From the NCBI GenBank assembly GCA_963835065.1, contig CAWIEK010000027.1, positions 1 through 21,306 on the forward strand: 21,306 bases of DNA, given 5' to 3'. The stretch comes from an uncultured Chthonomonadaceae bacterium. Lineage in GTDB: Bacteria; Armatimonadota; Chthonomonadetes; Chthonomonadales; Chthonomonadaceae. The notes below the pieces were generated by a model. The model was not told the origin of the DNA, searched no databases, and saw nothing but the letters and a program-made list of their open reading frames with translations. The position numbers were made by a program, and so were the translations under genes. Below are positions 2-21,254 of the stretch, piece after piece; position 1 is the first letter of the stretch; each line of letters begins with the position of its first letter.

Positions 2-2233
2 GCAGGCAGAACGGTAAAGTTGATTGCGCGGACGGGCGGCAAGTACCATTTGCGCTGGTCGCCGGATGGCAGCCAACTGGCGTTTTTGTCGTGGCTCGAT
101 CCGCAGTTGTCGTATTCGCGGGAGTGCGTGTTCGTAACGGATGTGCCGCAGGAAGCGCCTGCCCACGCCTCCACAGAATACGGCCAGAACGCGCCCGGAT
201 TAACCGACTGCCGCCTGCTGGCCGATATAGATTACGACCTGAGCGCGTTTGAGTGGGCGCGTCCCATAGAAGACGCAGAAGAAGATTCTGAAGAATCTGA
301 GAACAAAGCAACAGAAAAAGCAACAGAAGCCGAAGAATCTGAAAACAAGCAAGCAACAAACAAGGAATCCGCGACAAGCGAAAACGTTTCCAACCCTGCC
401 TTCACGCCGCGCTCTCCGAATGTTGCTCCCCCTGTTCTCGGCTATGCGCTCGCCGCCGTCCGCACCGGCTCTGAAATCGCGCAAATCACTCCAGGCGAAG
501 CGAACAAATCCGGTGAAGCAACAGAAAACACTGCCACTTTCCTAACGGCTCCGCAATCCTCCCAAACCAACGCGCCATCGCCCAACGAGCCATTGCCCAA
601 TGAACAATCCAAAATCCAAAATCCCCCATTCTCAATTGATGATCTGGCGCTTGATCCGGGTGGGCACAGTGTGGCCTACGTGCAGGAAAGCGCCCAATCC
701 CTCCCCGAAATCTTTCTGCGCGACGAAACGGGTGCGGTTCACCAACTGACACAACTCAACGCCGACTTCGCCAAAAACTACCGGTTACCGCATCAGGAAG
801 TGGTGTCGTGGACGAGTCCCGACGGGCTTGTCATTGAGGGCGTGCTGACGCTGCCGGGAATAGGGAACAGGGAACAGGGAACAGGGAACAGAGGAGAAAC
901 CTCACCCCTCAACCCGGACGTCCACCCGCAGGGAAGGACACAACCCCCAACTACTGTTCCCTGTTCCCTGTTCCCTGTTCCCTTAATCGTGCAAATTCAT
1001 GGCGGGCCGAAAGGACGCTCCACGAATACGCTGCAAAATTACAGCATGGCTCCCGTGTGGGCGGCGGAAGGGTATGCGGTGCTGCGGCCTAACTTCCGGG
1101 GCAGTGAGGGGTACGGGAATGAATTTGCGATTGCCAACCGGCGCGATCTGGGCGGCGGGGATTTTGCCGACATCATGGCGGGCGTGGACTGGTGCATCGC
1201 GCAATCTATTGCCGACCCGGAAAGGTTGGGCGTGATGGGCGGGTCGTATGGCGGCTACATGACCAACTGGGCGATTGGACACACCAACCGCTTTAAGGCC
1301 GCCGTTTCCATGTTCGGCATCTTCCACCTGCAAACCGATTACAGCAATTCGGAGTTGTCAAGATGGGAAAACGAGTATGCGGGCGCGTACTATTGGGAAG
1401 ACCCGGAGATTTATCGCCGCATGTCGCCCGGCACGTATCTGGACGCCATCCAAACTCCCACCCTGATTATTCATGGGGATGAGGACAGCAACACGTTCAT
1501 CAGCAACTCTAAAGAGATGTATCAGGCATTGCGGCATCGGGGCGTAACCGCGCAGTTTGTCCACTATCCCCGCGAAGGACACGGCCTGCGCGAACCCAAC
1601 CACAAAATGGACGAAATCCGCCGCTGCCTGAACTGGATGGACAAGTACCTCCGCCATGCGGGGCAAAACCCGTCCACGTACCGCATGGGCGACAAGGTTC
1701 CGAGCGCGAACGGCCTGCTGGAATTGTGCGTCACCCGCGCCGACTTAGCCACGTTCGTCGGCCAGCCCAAGCCCGAAAAGGACGCGCCCAATCCCACCCA
1801 ACTGCTCGAAATCGTCTTCACCATCAGCAACAAAGACAGCCGCGAACACGTCCCGCCCCTGCTGCTGCCCTTAGCGACCATCCGGCTGGAAGAAAGTGAA
1901 GCCGGGAATACGGAATACGGAATACGGAATACGGAAGCACGGGAGCCAACCACCAACCACCAACCACCAACCACCAGTTACCCCATCGGCGTTTCCCTCG
2001 ACGTGCTGGGCGGCAAAGTGCTGATAGAGGGCGAACATCTGCGCGCGTCGCAGCACCCGGACGAGGACACGGGGCAATTGGCGTTCGGCTGCGCGATTGT
2101 CTACCGCATCCCCAAAACCCAAAGCGCGGGACTGCTGCACATTCTGGACTTTGCGCCCGTGCAGTTACACTGGTCGGCGGAAGACGACAAGGACGAGGAA
2201 AAGGACGAAGCAACCGAGAAAGCGGAGGAGTAA
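2..2233 (+). CDS. S9 family (prolyl oligopeptidase/acylaminoacyl peptidase-like) serine peptidase, 5'-truncated by the window edge, with low-complexity insertions and an extra C-terminal region
   Basis: Frame open from position 2. WSPDG propeller motif, PLIVQIHGGP, PNFRGSEGYG, nucleophile motif GGSYGG, LIIHGDED and YPREGHG. Confidence 0.92.
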   Translation, partial: AGRTVKLIARTGGKYHLRWSPDGSQLAFLSWLDPQLSYSRECVFVTDVPQEAPAHASTEYGQNAPGLTDCRLLADIDYDLSAFEWARPIEDAEEDSEESENKATEKATEAEESENKQATNKESATSENVSNPAFTPRSPNVAPPVLGYALAAVRTGSEIAQITPGEANKSGEATENTATFLTAPQSSQTNAPSPNEPLPNEQSKIQNPPFSIDDLALDPGGHSVAYVQESAQSLPEIFLRDETGAVHQLTQLNADFAKNYRLPHQEVVSWTSPDGLVIEGVLTLPGIGNREQGTGNRGETSPLNPDVHPQGRTQPPTTVPCSLFPVPLIVQIHGGPKGRSTNTLQNYSMAPVWAAEGYAVLRPNFRGSEGYGNEFAIANRRDLGGGDFADIMAGVDWCIAQSIADPERLGVMGGSYGGYMTNWAIGHTNRFKAAVSMFGIFHLQTDYSNSELSRWENEYAGAYYWEDPEIYRRMSPGTYLDAIQTPTLIIHGDEDSNTFISNSKEMYQALRHRGVTAQFVHYPREGHGLREPNHKMDEIRRCLNWMDKYLRHAGQNPSTYRMGDKVPSANGLLELCVTRADLATFVGQPKPEKDAPNPTQLLEIVFTISNKDSREHVPPLLLPLATIRLEESEAGNTEYGIRNTEAREPTTNHQPPTTSYPIGVSLDVLGGKVLIEGEHLRASQHPDEDTGQLAFGCAIVYRIPKTQSAGLLHILDFAPVQLHWSAEDDKDEEKDEATEKAEE
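574..626 (+). repeat. 15-bp imperfect tandem duplication followed by AATCCAA heptamer repeats, inside the S9 CDS
   Basis: GCCATCGCCCAACGA / GCCATTGCCCAATGA (574-603), then AATCCAA AATCCAA AATCCCC (606-626, encoding QSKIQNP). Confidence 0.65.
856..983. repeat. Palindromic heptamer-arm element in frame within the S9 peptidase
   Basis: GGGAATA+(GGGAACA)x4 at 856-890 and (TGTTCCC)x4 at 955-982. Perfect 30-bp inverted repeat 862-891/954-983. Confidence 0.95.
1905..1976. repeat. Two adjacent, different heptamer arrays in frame within the S9 peptidase
   Basis: (GGAATAC)x4 at 1905-1932 and (CCAACCA)x4 at 1946-1973. Confidence 0.93.
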
Positions 2234-2237
2234 AAAC

Positions 2238-2276
2238 AAGCGGGGTGAACGTCAACGGCTGACATTCACCCCGCTT
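2238..2276. terminator. Hairpin, probable bidirectional intrinsic terminator between the convergent S9 gene and tRNA
   Basis: AAGCGGGGTGAAcGTCA-acggc-TGACaTTCACCCCGCTT. The A-run at 2232-2236 gives a U-tract on the minus strand, and TTT follows on the plus strand. Confidence 0.8.
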
Positions 2277-2279
2277 TCA

Positions 2280-2353
2280 GGCCTGAGACAGGACTTGAAC
2301 CCGCAACCGACGCATTACAAGTGCGTTGCGCTACCAAATTGCGCCACTCAGGC
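2280..2353 (-). tRNA. tRNA-Thr(TGT), CCA not encoded
   Basis: Reverse complement folds as a cloverleaf: acceptor GCCTGAG/CTCAGGC, D arm GCGC-AATTTGGTA-GCGC, anticodon arm ACGCA-CT TGT AA-TGCGT, T arm GCGGG-TTCAAGT-CCTGT. Confidence 0.95.
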
Positions 2354-2839
2354 AATTGTAACCAAACCCGCGTGTAGTTCCGCATGGCAATTGGCACACA
2401 ACAATATACACTTATCCAATTCTTTTGTCAAGACAGATTTGCGGCGCGTATGGTTGCCGCCAATGGTAAATTTTTTCGCGTCGGCATCGAGATGGTGAAA
2501 TTGCAGCGCGCCCATACATCGGTTGTATCCGCAGATTGCGCATCCCCCACCCTTGTAGGCAATCGCCTACTGCTTCACAACGAAACGGTTTTTGTGAACG
2601 GAACAGGTATTGCAAAGTGTGCGCCGATGGCCTCCGGTACGCTTGTAAACAACGCCCTTGCCGCACTCACGACAAACGCATTGCTCACCATCTCTTGAGG
2701 GTAGTGTCAAGTCAACTGTATTGTGCCTGTCAAATGGCGAACATTCCAAACAGAACTTGCGCTTGTTTAGAAACCGCTCTTTGCCGTCTACAATAAGGCG
2801 ATTGGGAAACTTCTCTTTGCATTTGTGACACGTTGGCAT
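2348..2839 (-). pseudogene. HNH endonuclease with N-terminal CxxC zinc ribbons, interrupted by one in-frame TAG (2567-2569)
   Basis: Manual read-through of the 90-aa ORF continues in frame: KQ*AIAYKGGGCAICGYNRCMGALQFHHLDADAKKFTIGGNHTRRKSVLTKELDKCILLCANCHAELHAGLVTIA-stop (CxxC...HH...CANCHxxxH). Four more CxxC pairs lie upstream of the TAG. Confidence 0.88.
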
Positions 2840-2859
2840 GAGACATAAACCTCAATTTG

Positions 2860-2890
2860 TGTTATAATAGGCTCAGAGTTACCATCGAAA
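2860..2890. promoter_or_regulatory. Candidate overlapping divergent sigma70-type promoters
   Basis: Plus strand extended -10 TGtTATAAT (2860-2868). Minus strand TTCGAT-17 nt-TATAAC ahead of the HNH/tRNA unit. Confidence 0.45.
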
Positions 2891-2917
2891 ATGAAGCCAA
2901 TGGAAAGGAAGAGGCCA

Positions 2918-3142
2918 ATGGCTGATCACGTAGAAACTACGAGCGCGCAGGAAAATCCTTCAGCGCTGACGGGGCGGCATGAGCAGACGGGACAGAAGTT
3001 CTCGCCTTTTGCCGCGCCCGCGCCGTCCACAGCGGTGGAACCGCCACGCGCGCCCTGCGCAGTTCCCATCCAAATACCAATTTTGAATGGGGAGTATGAG
3101 CGGCTAAAGGAAGCCGCAGAAACGGATACGTCCAGCCTATAG
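2918..3142 (+). CDS. Hypothetical protein (possibly the separated N-terminus of the next gene)
   Basis: ORF with purine-rich GGAAGAGG before ATG 2918. Shares a motif with the N-terminus of the next ORF. Confidence 0.5.
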   Translation: MADHVETTSAQENPSALTGRHEQTGQKFSPFAAPAPSTAVEPPRAPCAVPIQIPILNGEYERLKEAAETDTSSL

Positions 3143-3159
3143 CGAGGAGGTAGAACAAG

Positions 3160-4774
3160 ATGCTCAAGTCCCGCCGTTCCAGTCGCCCGGTTCCGCTTCC
3201 CGGCACCGCCATAGCCGGAGCGCCTTCTCCACCATCAAGACAATTTACCCCCAGCGGCCCGCTTCCGCAGGCTCCCGCCATTCCCAACCGCCGTCCCCGG
3301 CCCGCTACGACACGTTACCCCATAGCGAATAGTGACTTCCAGGCCGCGCAGCAGTATGCGGAACAACCCACTGCGCCGGCGTCGCAGGCGGGCGACAAGC
3401 CCGATGCGGCCATTGTGCCGGATATGGCAGCCGCCGCAGGGGCCGCGGCGCTGTCTGCCTTTCCTGCCCTGCCTCCCGCGCCGACTTCTATTGGAACCGG
3501 CCCCGCTCCCACAGTCGTGACTACCTTTGCAGGCATTGGCGTCAACGGCTTTTTCCCCGCCGATTGCGCCCTTGCCGCCGGACCGGAGCATGTCCTTATT
3601 GCGGTCAACTCCATGATTGCTCTTGCTGACAAACAGGGGGGCCTGGTTTCTCAAGTCACGCTGGACCAGTGGTTCTCCAATGTTGTTCAGCAGCACAAAA
3701 TCTTTGACCCACGCGCCCTCTATGATCAGTATGCGGACCGATGGATTGTGGCTGCCGCCGCTTTGGGACCGGATAACAGTCAAATCTCGCTGTTTCTGCT
3801 TTCGGTTTCCGATACCTCGGACCCTACAAAAACTTGGAGCAACTATGCGCTGGACGCCACGGTGGATGGCACTGTCAAAACCAACAACTGGGGAGACTAC
3901 CCGACGCTGGGAGTGGACGACAAGGCCATCTACATCACCGCCAATATGTTTGTTTTTGATGGCGCATTTGCCTATGCCAAGATTCGCATTATTGACAAGA
4001 GCGGGCCGTACTCAGGCGGTTCGGTCACGTTTACGGACATTCCCAATCTGAAAGACCCGAATAATAGCCCGGCGTTTACGGTACAGCCCTGTCATACATT
4101 CGGTGCCAACCCTCCGGCTCAATATTTTGTCAGCGCGGTGTTTCCCGGCAGCAATGAACTGGCGCTGTGGACGCTGACGAACCCGCTTACCCCTGCCCCA
4201 ACGATTGCGGCGGCTACAGTGCCAGTCAGCGCTTACAACCTGCCTCCCAAAGCGGAGCAGCAGGGCGGCGGCAACCCCATTGACACCGGTGATACTCGCC
4301 TGCAAAACGCCGTCTTTCGCGATGGTTCCGTTTGGACAGCGCTGACTACGCGGCACAACTGGGGCGAACCCAAAAACCGCGCCGCGTTGCACTGGTTCGA
4401 AATTGACCCTCTGGATGCGAACGGCCCGGCGCTCAAGCAGGAAGGCGTGTATGGAGCCGGTGGAGTCCACTACTTTTATCCCGTTATCCTGCCAACTGCC
4501 GGGGGCGGCGTTCTCCTCGGCTTCTGGCCGCTCCGGCGCAACGGAATTTGCCGGCGCGCATGTGACCGGCCGCGCCGCTGCCGACGCGGCAGGGACTCTG
4601 CGATCCAGCGCCGTTCTTCAAGCAGGACTAACCAACTATACGGGGCTGCCCCGCTGGGGAGATTACGGAGGCATCGGCTTGGACCCCCAGGATGAGAACC
4701 TCGTATGGACCTATAAGGACCATGCTGATGCAACGGGAGACTGGGCCACGATAGTCGGCTCTATCCGCATCTAA
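3160..4774 (+). CDS. Uncharacterised beta-rich protein with two WGDY motifs, +1 frameshift near 4525-4528
   Basis: GAGGAGG before ATG 3160. PADCALAAGPEH..AVN, FDPRALYD and WGDYP. After VLLGF the protein-like sequence continues in the 4403-4774 frame (GRSGATEFAG...RWGDYGGIGLDP...WATIVGSIRI). Confidence 0.75.
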
Positions 4775-14128: not shown

Positions 14129-14755
14129 ATGATGGACACTGCAACAAAAACACAGACTCGGCGATTGCTGATTACCCTCGCGCAAAAGCGGCAGCGAAAA
14201 GGTAACGGCAGTGACGCCGCCTTTCTTCAAGAAAGAACAACGCGCATGTTGTTTCCCAATCCCGCATCCCTCCTTGCGCCCCTGCGTTGGGCCGTCATTG
14301 GAGCCGCCGCCACTCGCCTGTACATGCCGGAACGCGCCACAAATGATTTAGACATCCTCATACGAGTTCAGGATGCAAACGCGGCGCGAACGAAACTGAC
14401 ACAGGCTGGCGCTGCTTACAAGTCCGAGTTGACAATTGGAGGAAGTTCGTGGATTTTGGCGAACGGTTTTCCTCTGGACGTAATCGAGTGCCGGGAAGCG
14501 TGGGCGGAAACAGCATTGGAGCAGGCACAAACCAATATGGATACGCAGGGTATGCCCATTGTTCCGCTTCCCTATCTGGTGCTGATGAAGTTTCAAGCCA
14601 GCCGCGTTCAGGATTTGGCGGACATTACGCGCATGTTGGGTCAAGCCTCCGCAGAGCAATTAGATGCGACGCGGGTCGTGTTTCGTCAATGGATACCGGA
14701 CGAAGCCGAAGATTTGGAAAGTCTCGTCATGCTCGGCCAGTTAGAAATGAAGTAG
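14129..14755 (+). CDS. Nucleotidyltransferase-fold hypothetical protein
   Basis: WAVIGAAA..Y..RATNDLDIL, LDVI, LVLMK..R.QD..DI pattern. Confidence 0.7.
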   Translation: MMDTATKTQTRRLLITLAQKRQRKGNGSDAAFLQERTTRMLFPNPASLLAPLRWAVIGAAATRLYMPERATNDLDILIRVQDANAARTKLTQAGAAYKSELTIGGSSWILANGFPLDVIECREAWAETALEQAQTNMDTQGMPIVPLPYLVLMKFQASRVQDLADITRMLGQASAEQLDATRVVFRQWIPDEAEDLESLVMLGQLEMK

Positions 14756-15582: not shown

Positions 15583-15837
15583 TTACGGCGCTTCTCCAGC
15601 CACAGCAGGAATTAACCAGACATTAAGTTGTTCATCCAGGCTCAACTGCGTTTCCACATCCGCAAGTGCGTCGTAGTATTCAAATGTACTTGACGGCTGT
15701 GCGCTGGGAAGAACAGGGACGTACCAGGTGTTGTTTTCGTGACGGATACCCTGCGCCACAACGGCAAGATTGACGCCGCCGGGGTGCTGATACTGCAAGC
15801 GTTCCTGAATCAGTTCAAGCACTTGTTCTTTACTCAT
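15583..15837 (-). CDS. Small hypothetical protein coupled to the HEPN gene (putative partner/antitoxin)
   Basis: 84-aa ORF overlapping the 3' end of the HEPN gene by 8 nt; GGAG upstream. Confidence 0.7.
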
Positions 15838-16210
15838 TGAGAACTCCTAACTCGCGCAAAACAAAACTGGCATCGCGCAAAAAGCGAATAGCATCCGGGC
15901 GGTCAATCGGCGTATGAGGCCGATAATCAACATTTTCTCTGGCGGTGCGCAAGCGCCGAACCGCTCGGTTTAGTGGAAAGCGCAAAGCACGGGGCAGACG
16001 CATGGTGTTCAGAATCAACTCTGGTAGTTGATCATGTGCAGGGTTATTCCACCCATGCGCGAACTGCACTCCCTGCGCGACTAATTCAGCCGTTACCGCA
16101 CAGTAAGCCGCATAGTAGGCTCGGCTAACGCTGCTGCGCAGATGGCCTTCATTCAGCAGTTTTGTCGCCGCCTGAAAATTGTCGCTGCTCAACTCCTGCC
16201 ATGTTGCCAC
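15830..16210 (-). CDS. HEPN domain protein
   Basis: A..LL..G..RSSVSRAYYAAY, conserved H, and the RENVDY (RxxxDY) motif. Confidence 0.85.
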   Translation of the reverse strand: MATWQELSSDNFQAATKLLNEGHLRSSVSRAYYAAYCAVTAELVAQGVQFAHGWNNPAHDQLPELILNTMRLPRALRFPLNRAVRRLRTARENVDYRPHTPIDRPDAIRFLRDASFVLRELGVLNE

Positions 16211-20617: not shown

Positions 20618-20974
20618 CTACAGCAGGTCAAGGTATGTTTTCAGAACCATGCGTATCTGTTCGCGTAAAGCTTCGTCATTCAGATATCCGTAAGAACCAA
20701 GCAGACGTTCTTTGGCGACAACACGAACCTGCTGCGCCATGACAATGGAAGCGTTGGGCTGACCGGCAATCCCGGCAGGCAGCAGTACCTCTGTGGAACG
20801 TAAGCGCCGTCCTGGACGCCATGTTGTTACCGACACAACGGCTACAACCGTCAGGGAGGTATTGATGGCTTCACGAGACACAATCAGGGCGGGCCGTATT
20901 CCTGCTTGTTCAGAGCCGCGTACCGGGTCAAAGTTTGCCCGCACCATTTGCCACTGATAGGGCGAGTTAATCAT
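20618..20974 (-). CDS. Type II toxin, PemK/MazF family endoribonuclease
   Basis: FDPVRGSEQAGIRPALIVS, QVRVVAKERL. Confidence 0.93.
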   Translation of the reverse strand: MINSPYQWQMVRANFDPVRGSEQAGIRPALIVSREAINTSLTVVAVVSVTTWRPGRRLRSTEVLLPAGIAGQPNASIVMAQQVRVVAKERLLGSYGYLNDEALREQIRMVLKTYLDLL

Positions 20975-21254
20975 GTCCTTCCTCTTCGTCCATCATCCGC
21001 GCCGTTTCCGCATCAATGTATTTGTACGCTTCCATCGTTTCTTCCATATCCTGCACGAACATTGGGTCGGACATGGCTTCTTCAAATTCGCGCCGCAATC
21101 TTTCCTCACGCGCCTGCTTGTCTATGGCTGTGGCCTCTTGTTCTGCCAGTTCACGCCTGAGCAGGAAACTGACAAAACCGTTCACATCCTGCCCCGCGCG
21201 TTTTGCCGCCGCCTCAATTTTCTGCTCCAACTCCGGTTCCAGCGTAATGGTCAT
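20967..21254 (-). CDS. Cognate antitoxin (ribbon-helix-helix-like N-terminus, acidic C-terminus)
   Basis: MTITLEPELEQKIEAAAKRAG; overlaps the toxin start; AAGGAG ribosome-binding site. Confidence 0.8.
   Translation of the reverse strand: MTITLEPELEQKIEAAAKRAGQDVNGFVSFLLRRELAEQEATAIDKQAREERLRREFEEAMSDPMFVQDMEETMEAYKYIDAETARMMDEEEGHD

Follow-up and report, generated by a model that had tools for sequence, protein, structure and literature searches.

The tRNA-Thr(UGU) locus and its HNH gene

The window, the whole 21,306-nt stretch of DNA that was analysed, carries on its minus strand a tRNA-Thr(UGU) gene with no encoded CCA (2280..2353), called by both ARAGORN and Rfam (64 bits). It is the genome's only Thr(UGU) locus, present in two strain copies, and its mean identity to the HNH-free alleles of the family is 72%, most of those alleles averaging 80-90%. 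Directly beyond the tRNA, scanning and folding reveal an intrinsic terminator (2230..2276, unstranded), a hairpin of 17-18 bp at 2276-2238 with a folding z of -6.7, just where an earlier sequence-only reading by a model had placed one. The Rfam mir-9201 row obtained for 1800-3400 (E 0.06) is this same hairpin. The terminator lies between the tRNA and a convergent S9 peptidase gene (20..2233, plus strand) and is likely shared by the two; the peptidase gene is the conserved flank that marks the orthologous locus in genomes G001, G002 and G033 and in the environmental contig X2.

Integrase islands use the tRNA 3' end. Here the tRNA 3' end is followed by the conserved terminator and peptidase gene, no tRNA-end repeat of the kind that marks such islands occurs in 1800-3400, and no integrase is apparent by eye among the window ORFs (four proteins were domain-scanned), as the earlier reading had also found. 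Within the peptidase gene, 1905-1980 holds short tandem repeats (GGAATAC and ACCACCA types) that are strain-variable and frequent in public contigs. On the other side of the locus, a 511-aa gene at 3160-4774 has no Pfam match, and its C-terminus seemingly continues in another frame (4403-4774), a possible frameshift. Farther away are three small gene sets, at 14129-14755, 15583-16210 and 20618-21254, that look by eye like toxin-antitoxin modules, putatively with a nucleotidyltransferase, an HEPN-like pair and a PemK/MazF-like pair.

The minus-strand frame 2839-2348 consists of 163 codons and a TGA, with a single in-frame TAG at codon 91 (2569-2567), and we annotate it as an HNH endonuclease pseudogene (2348..2839, minus strand) from a PHROG 2255 match and homolog alignment. 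Its product has zinc-binding CxxC motifs toward the N-terminus and an FHH...CANCHAELH core toward the C-terminus. The sequence-only reading had described just such a zinc-ribbon and HNH frame with one TAG, and the profile search it called for bears this out: residues 1-158 of the read-through protein match PHROG 2255, 'HNH endonuclease', at E 2.5e-39, a full-length sequence match. A sequence search gave 598 homologs, and F114 H115, C148, C151, H152 and E154 are invariant across 45 of them. The Pfam HNH_2 match fell below the cut-off (16.5 versus 21 bits), and a search of NCBIfam returned no useful match. The predicted structure of the read-through protein has a pLDDT of 94.4; Foldseek returned nothing at E<=0.001, its weak top rows (E 0.04-0.6) being HNH domains (Cap5, Gme HNH, EndoVII and T5 SciA), and the best row of a PDB sequence search was McrA, also weak (E 0.017). 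Judged by the sequence match and the His/Cys core, the protein belongs among the HNH (beta-beta-alpha-Me) endonucleases, in PHROG 2255, a family for which we know of no tested function or target.

The gene sits outside any intron or intein: the tRNA is contiguous, and Rfam finds the tRNA alone in 1800-3400. No adjacent structured guide RNA of the HEARO/OMEGA type was matched among the known Rfam families in that interval (E<=1), and no hairpin that would mask the ribosome-binding site, of the sort known from T4, is predicted (folding z +1.07).

Homologs, alleles and the TAG at codon 91

Genome, viral, metagenome and phylum searches yielded a family set of 264 loci, of which 263 were matched and 236 remained after 90% redundancy reduction; these are the best ~80 loci of each scan and not a random sample. 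Among the best loci listed, a tRNA gene occurs within 300 nt for 63 of the 76 non-redundant full-length homologs (2 of the 76 lack room), the chance level being 147 of 20000 random segments of the source genome (0.7%). Broken down by source, again for the best loci listed, the full-length forms found within this distance number 20/23 in genomes, 17/20 in metagenomes and 26/33 in viruses, and the short forms 33/38 in viruses, 27/51 in metagenomes and only 14/71 in genomes. The shorter bacterial-genome homologs are mostly not tRNA-linked, which limits the link to part of the family. Many homologs reside in phage tRNA clusters. Named relatives place the host probably in the Armatimonadota, and a search of 401 genomes of that phylum added 17 loci, every one within 82 nt of a tRNA. 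Subclades in the phylum occupy Thr(UGU), Arg(CCU)-Ser(CGA), Phe, Pro and Thr(GGU) loci, each with tight junctions.

A tree built from 76 core domains (79 columns, with many forks open) has 37 changes in the label of the downstream tRNA among 70 labelled rows, compared with at least 50 in 200 shuffles, a contrast that kinship inflates. The window falls in a 9-row clade (support 99/83) with P0003, P0004, P0005, L103 and L010, whose neighbours, where known, are Thr(UGU) or Ile(UAU); L010 lies upstream of Thr(UGU). This last element, from genome G176 (L010/L318), can be compared with congener G126 (L316). The two share the upstream promoter, after which an HNH gene and a tRNA-Thr in G176 replace the native tRNA-Thr before tRNA-Tyr. 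The tRNA-Thr of G176 is only 39/72 like that of G126, and the next gene, tRNA-Tyr, is 79/83. For this one genome pair, the pattern fits a nuclease and its tRNA allele moving together by co-conversion.

Related arrangements occur elsewhere. A third homolog in the source genome (G000:C11:127675-128187, L008) is intact, 39% identical, and located between tRNA-Arg(CCU) and tRNA-Ser(CGA); the same order is found in G001 and G011, and G005 and G030 are empty there, with the tRNAs about 40-50 nt apart. Four homologs (L092, L110, L178 and L220) have same-anticodon tRNAs (Asn or Lys) on both sides. The source genome also has a 16-gene tRNA array (G000:C49:430274-432286), and a similar array in G001 has an HNH homolog (L006) inserted between Ile(GAU) and Ser(GCU). 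ARAGORN further calls a 96-nt tRNA with anticodon TTA at G000:C42:1858-1953, probably falsely.

The peptidase-tRNA locus itself exists in several states. The empty alleles that the sequence-only reading had proposed looking for are present in G001 (same genus) and G033, which have a native promoter and no HNH gene at the orthologous locus, the peptidase lying 1.1 kb and 3.2 kb, respectively, downstream of Thr(UGU). Occurrence of the gene is optional, these empty alleles standing against the intact allele in X2, and the empty G126 against the occupied G176; homologs are patchy, any homolog being found in 4 of 61 relatives. Together with the tRNA linkage of the full-length loci listed, these empty alleles uphold the proposal of a tRNA-linked, selfish-type HNH gene in a chromosome. 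Intact alleles come from public contigs of runs X2, X4 and X5, about 86-90% identical over 2339-2600, and the X2 contig additionally covers the peptidase end and terminator. The broken allele is that of the window and its strain duplicate C29, which has the same TAG.

Comparison of these alleles located no cut site or immunity determinant. The anticodon arm as immunity site is not supported, the intact X2 and X4 carrying the same family-type arm as empty alleles. Between the window's tRNA and its strain copy (2310-2338 against G000:C29:11748-11820, L005) there are 6 substitutions and 1 indel, nearly all of them in the anticodon arm. The window has the same arm as G037, from another family, and the arm in C29 has an A-A mismatch at the last pair, which suggests gene conversion of the tRNA arm.

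The TAG (2567..2569, minus strand) occupies a position where P0003-P0005 have Trp and where TGG is found in all four environmental contigs that cover it (runs X2, X4 and X5). It is known from two contigs of one assembly, C27 and C29, which are identical over 2421-4524 and so do not provide independent evidence. C29 was considered as a second mobile copy and rejected: it is a 14.1 kb duplicate, 98.6% identical, that also repeats lysS and greA, and most likely represents a second strain. Recoding was likewise rejected, TAG being an ordinary stop in the source genome (it terminates 364 of 1387 long ORFs) and no CUA-anticodon tRNA appearing among the 102 ARAGORN calls. One might still suppose a functional, intact gene whose TAG stems from faulty assembly or is read through. 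The frame is otherwise clean with all 18 invariant columns, the TAG is confined to one assembly, and an identical public contig (X1, 2624-2911) ends before reaching it; yet the TAG is in both strain contigs, a single transition turns TGG into TAG, and the codon usage and tRNA calls just cited speak against read-through. We regard an intact gene as very improbable here. An active free-standing homing endonuclease has an intact reading frame, as the related alleles do and this one does not, and the window's allele is likely a broken member of that class and not an active one. The TGG of the environmental alleles at this codon makes a recent death of the gene likely.

Until then the protein was under purifying selection: 17 of the 22 differences listed between X2 and the window fall at third codon positions of the HNH gene. 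This bears on the idea that the gene was passive cargo, brought on a phage or island fragment to a tRNA hot spot, never homing in the chromosome and retained only for its promoter (see below). Homologs are indeed common in phage tRNA clusters, no two of the genomes seen (G000, G001, G002 and X2) share an upstream flank, and cutting is a proposed activity. Against it, besides the third-position excess, stand the independent subclades at five kinds of tRNA locus in one phylum with tight junctions at each, the replacement of the G176 tRNA allele between conserved flanks, and the conserved terminator and peptidase gene that follow the tRNA 3' end in the window. On balance we find this explanation unlikely and prefer a homing origin.

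A predicted tRNA promoter within the HNH reading frame

Inside the 3' end of the HNH gene, 78 nt before the tRNA, the promoter scan identified a predicted sigma-70 promoter of the tRNA, TTGACA-17-TATATT (2403..2431, minus strand), that matches the consensus at 11 of 12 positions; allele comparison and a vestige in a related genome, both described below, point to the same site. Its hexamers coincide with codons Leu137-Thr138 and Cys144-Ile145-Leu146, beside the catalytic motif. In the interval scanned, 1500-4000, 4 sites were found, against 1.0 +/- 1.0 in shuffles. From the promoter position, the predicted 5' leader of the tRNA (2354..2397, minus strand) would overlap the last HNH codons. The sequence-only reading had instead assigned the tRNA to a promoter upstream of the HNH gene. 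A candidate does exist there (TTTTCG-16-TATTAT, 2891-2864), with a Shine-Dalgarno-like GAGGT of the HNH gene at 2853-2849 (together 2849..2891, minus strand), but this best upstream candidate is weak, scoring 8/12, and is absent from the list produced by the scan. A tRNA promoter inside the HNH gene had been named as a finding that would tell against the reading, and at the level of sequence one lies at 2431-2403; for this allele, reliance of the tRNA on the upstream promoter is not supported. The HNH upstream region is also overlapped by a divergent scan match (GAGACA-17-TG-TATAAT, 10/12, 2840..2868, plus strand) that likely serves the gene at 3160.

Thr(UGU) genes of the family were collected for comparison, with matches in 28 of 42 genomes; 27 alleles were scored for promoters, a set that includes two added alleles and omits duplicates, one copy within an array and two alleles lying at the ends of contigs. 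Of the 24 HNH-free alleles, 22 carry a 10-12/12 promoter 38-90 nt upstream of tRNA-Thr(UGU), and one of the two exceptions is the second gene in an operon. Because these alleles have their promoter at a like position, the internal site appears to correspond, in both position and sequence, to the promoter that this tRNA normally has in the family. A promoter common to the KCIL codons of all homologs was considered and rejected: among 240 homolog loci, scores at this codon register cluster around 5-7 of 12, the window's locus alone reaches 11, and the next best is 9. In two phage subclades (L093-L098, L170 and L176), whose genes precede tRNA-Glu or tRNA-Gln, promoters scoring 11-12/12 overlap the ends of the ORFs themselves at a different register and may be independent embedded promoters.

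The alleles differ least around the predicted promoter. In X2, 0 of 26 third positions differ in 2370-2449, compared with 16 of 40 in 2450-2569 (p 8e-5), and X5 agrees (0/13 versus 16/40, p 0.005); these counts use the 40 difference rows listed out of 57, which are apparently complete for X2 and X5 away from contig ends and partial for X3 and X4. The quiet zone fits a second constraint on promoter and leader, or it could reflect recent gene conversion next to the tRNA.

A further allele state comes from congener G002, which has no HNH match and keeps only the last ~28 HNH codons. Its 84-nt leader is identical to the HNH tail at 58 of 84 positions (z 10.4, 300 shuffles), the z values of 24 other leaders ranging from -0.8 to 3.4, and its translation is still ...LTNGLVACILLCAEC... 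All 12 hexamer bases are kept, and spacer and leader drift. Because the ELDKCILLCxNCH motif is family-wide, the change runs from gene to leader. This vestige is known from one genome, 80% complete, and an HMM search for more upstream of 38 Thr(UGU) rows recovered only G002, weakly (E 0.04). Both the promoter and the vestige findings hold whether or not the TAG is genuine.

As the sequence-only reading had pointed out, the last HNH codon and stop (GCC TGA) are the first six bases of the tRNA, ARAGORN and Rfam both placing it at 2353-2280. From this it had been argued that nuclease expression is tied to tRNA processing. Spelled out, such a model would run as follows: the HNH gene and tRNA would be co-transcribed from the upstream promoter, the RNase P cut at tRNA +1 would remove the stop, and the non-stop mRNA would go to tmRNA, so that nuclease output is limited by tRNA processing. 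The overlap is real, the genome encodes tmRNA, and such overlaps are rare, about 1 in 15000 mRNAs genome-wide as given in PMC4131195. Among the best loci listed with a sense tRNA within 150 nt, 35 of 79 homologs stop inside it, 15 of them at -10, and 23 of the 35 share the frame class to which the U8-A9-G10 triplet belongs; that one frame class dominates favours early stops and leaves room for a non-stop-mRNA side effect. The proposed layout of native promoter, HNH gene and tRNA, with no internal promoter at this register, does fit the sister element in G176. In the window, the TAG would halt translation 73 codons before the tRNA, and the internal promoter outscores the upstream one. Moreover, the other 44 of the 79 listed homologs stop before the tRNA, and the stop position varies within the Thr(UGU) clade: -6 here, -15 in L010, and about -30, -37 and -39 as inferred from P0011, P0004 and P0003. 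We consider coupling to tRNA processing improbable as an account of this locus; it may hold as a side effect in intact alleles and is not the state of this one. That the frame ends within the tRNA is likely an incidental effect of how tightly the two genes adjoin.

Proposed history of the locus and comparison with known systems

Taken together, the evidence makes it probable that the window holds a recently broken tRNA-linked HNH gene, likely a free-standing homing nuclease that travelled with its tRNA-Thr(UGU) allele; the predicted promoter of this essential tRNA is written into the final codons of the gene, whose tail has probably been kept as a promoter. The family adjoins tRNA genes, those next to the window's subclade being Thr(UGU) or Ile(UAU) where known. 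An intact enzyme would nick or cut the empty allele at the tRNA gene or close to it; recombinational repair would copy in the nuclease along with the tRNA allele it travels with, and no integrase would be involved. The codons for ...LT..ELDKCIL turned, in this lineage, into a near-consensus TTGACA-17-TATATT; if this acts as a promoter, the tRNA would cease to depend on transcripts that run through the nuclease gene. The frame then decays, by the TAG here, and G002 has lost everything upstream of the promoter with both hexamers in place. The tail would be retained for its promoter function, because its deletion would silence the only Thr(UGU) tRNA.

A broader reading is possible, though we hold it more tentatively. 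Chromosomes of this phylum may host tRNA-specific gene drives, small HNH nucleases that would each target one housekeeping tRNA locus and swap in their own allele; here, codons beside the catalytic motif would have become the tRNA promoter, and the element would then have died and left the promoter behind. Empty, intact, nonsense and promoter-only alleles, which would be all the stages of such a history, are found at one locus. Natural intact, broken, vestigial and empty alleles make the homing and promoter claims directly testable. The locus would also give a housekeeping promoter a traceable origin in nuclease coding sequence, and indicate how alleles of an essential tRNA may be exchanged with no integrase at work.

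Components of this idea are already known from phages. Edgell et al. (2010, PMC2988022) describe the T4 genes segG, segA, segE, mobB and mobC as free-standing homing endonucleases with the downstream gene's promoter in their coding regions, and argue that such an embedded promoter favours retention of the nuclease gene. As with segG, a free-standing nuclease gene lies upstream of an essential gene whose promoter is within the nuclease ORF, here as a predicted match with conservation. SegG itself is a GIY-YIG enzyme, whereas our case concerns a bacterial chromosome, a dependent tRNA gene, a predicted sigma-70 promoter over codons beside the catalytic motif, and a promoter-only end state in a congener. 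A single chromosomal locus would exhibit the T4 argument, that a selfish nuclease gene is protected from clean deletion by a promoter embedded in it, and its outcome as well: the host can be rid of the nuclease gene yet retain some 85 bases of it as a promoter.

T4 SegB, likewise encoded by a free-standing gene amid tRNA genes, cuts a motif in a tRNA and thereby promotes the spread of its own gene and of the tRNA genes next to it (Brok-Volchanskaya et al. 2008, PMC2330249). It is a GIY-YIG enzyme, phage-borne, within a cluster and a proven cutter; the gene in the window encodes a zinc-finger HNH protein beside a single housekeeping chromosomal tRNA, the allele is broken and homing is putative. 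HNH genes conserved beside tRNA arrays, and proposed to spread them, have been reported for Anabaena all8564 (PMC8421152) and in mycobacteriophage clusters (PMC6409571); as presented in these sources they flank long mobile arrays, not a single essential tRNA, and the likeness drawn here is one of gene setting. At the level of protein sequence, the comparison is with other members of PHROG 2255, such as Bacillus phage Anthony protein P0020 (51% identity), from which this lineage is set apart by its internal promoter, unique at this register among the 240 homolog loci. Hudson et al. (2014, PMC4131195) predicted that CDS-tRNA overlaps give non-stop mRNA, and the overlaps treated in their main text, where HNH is not mentioned, likewise involve an upstream CDS ending inside a same-strand tRNA; in the window the earlier TAG and the internal promoter make such an effect moot. 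The literature searched, mostly outside the subscription journals, contains no paper that traces the promoter of a chromosomal tRNA to an HNH gene. What appears to be new, as read from these alleles, is a predicted promoter built of codons beside the catalytic motif of a nuclease and surviving as a vestige of its gene.
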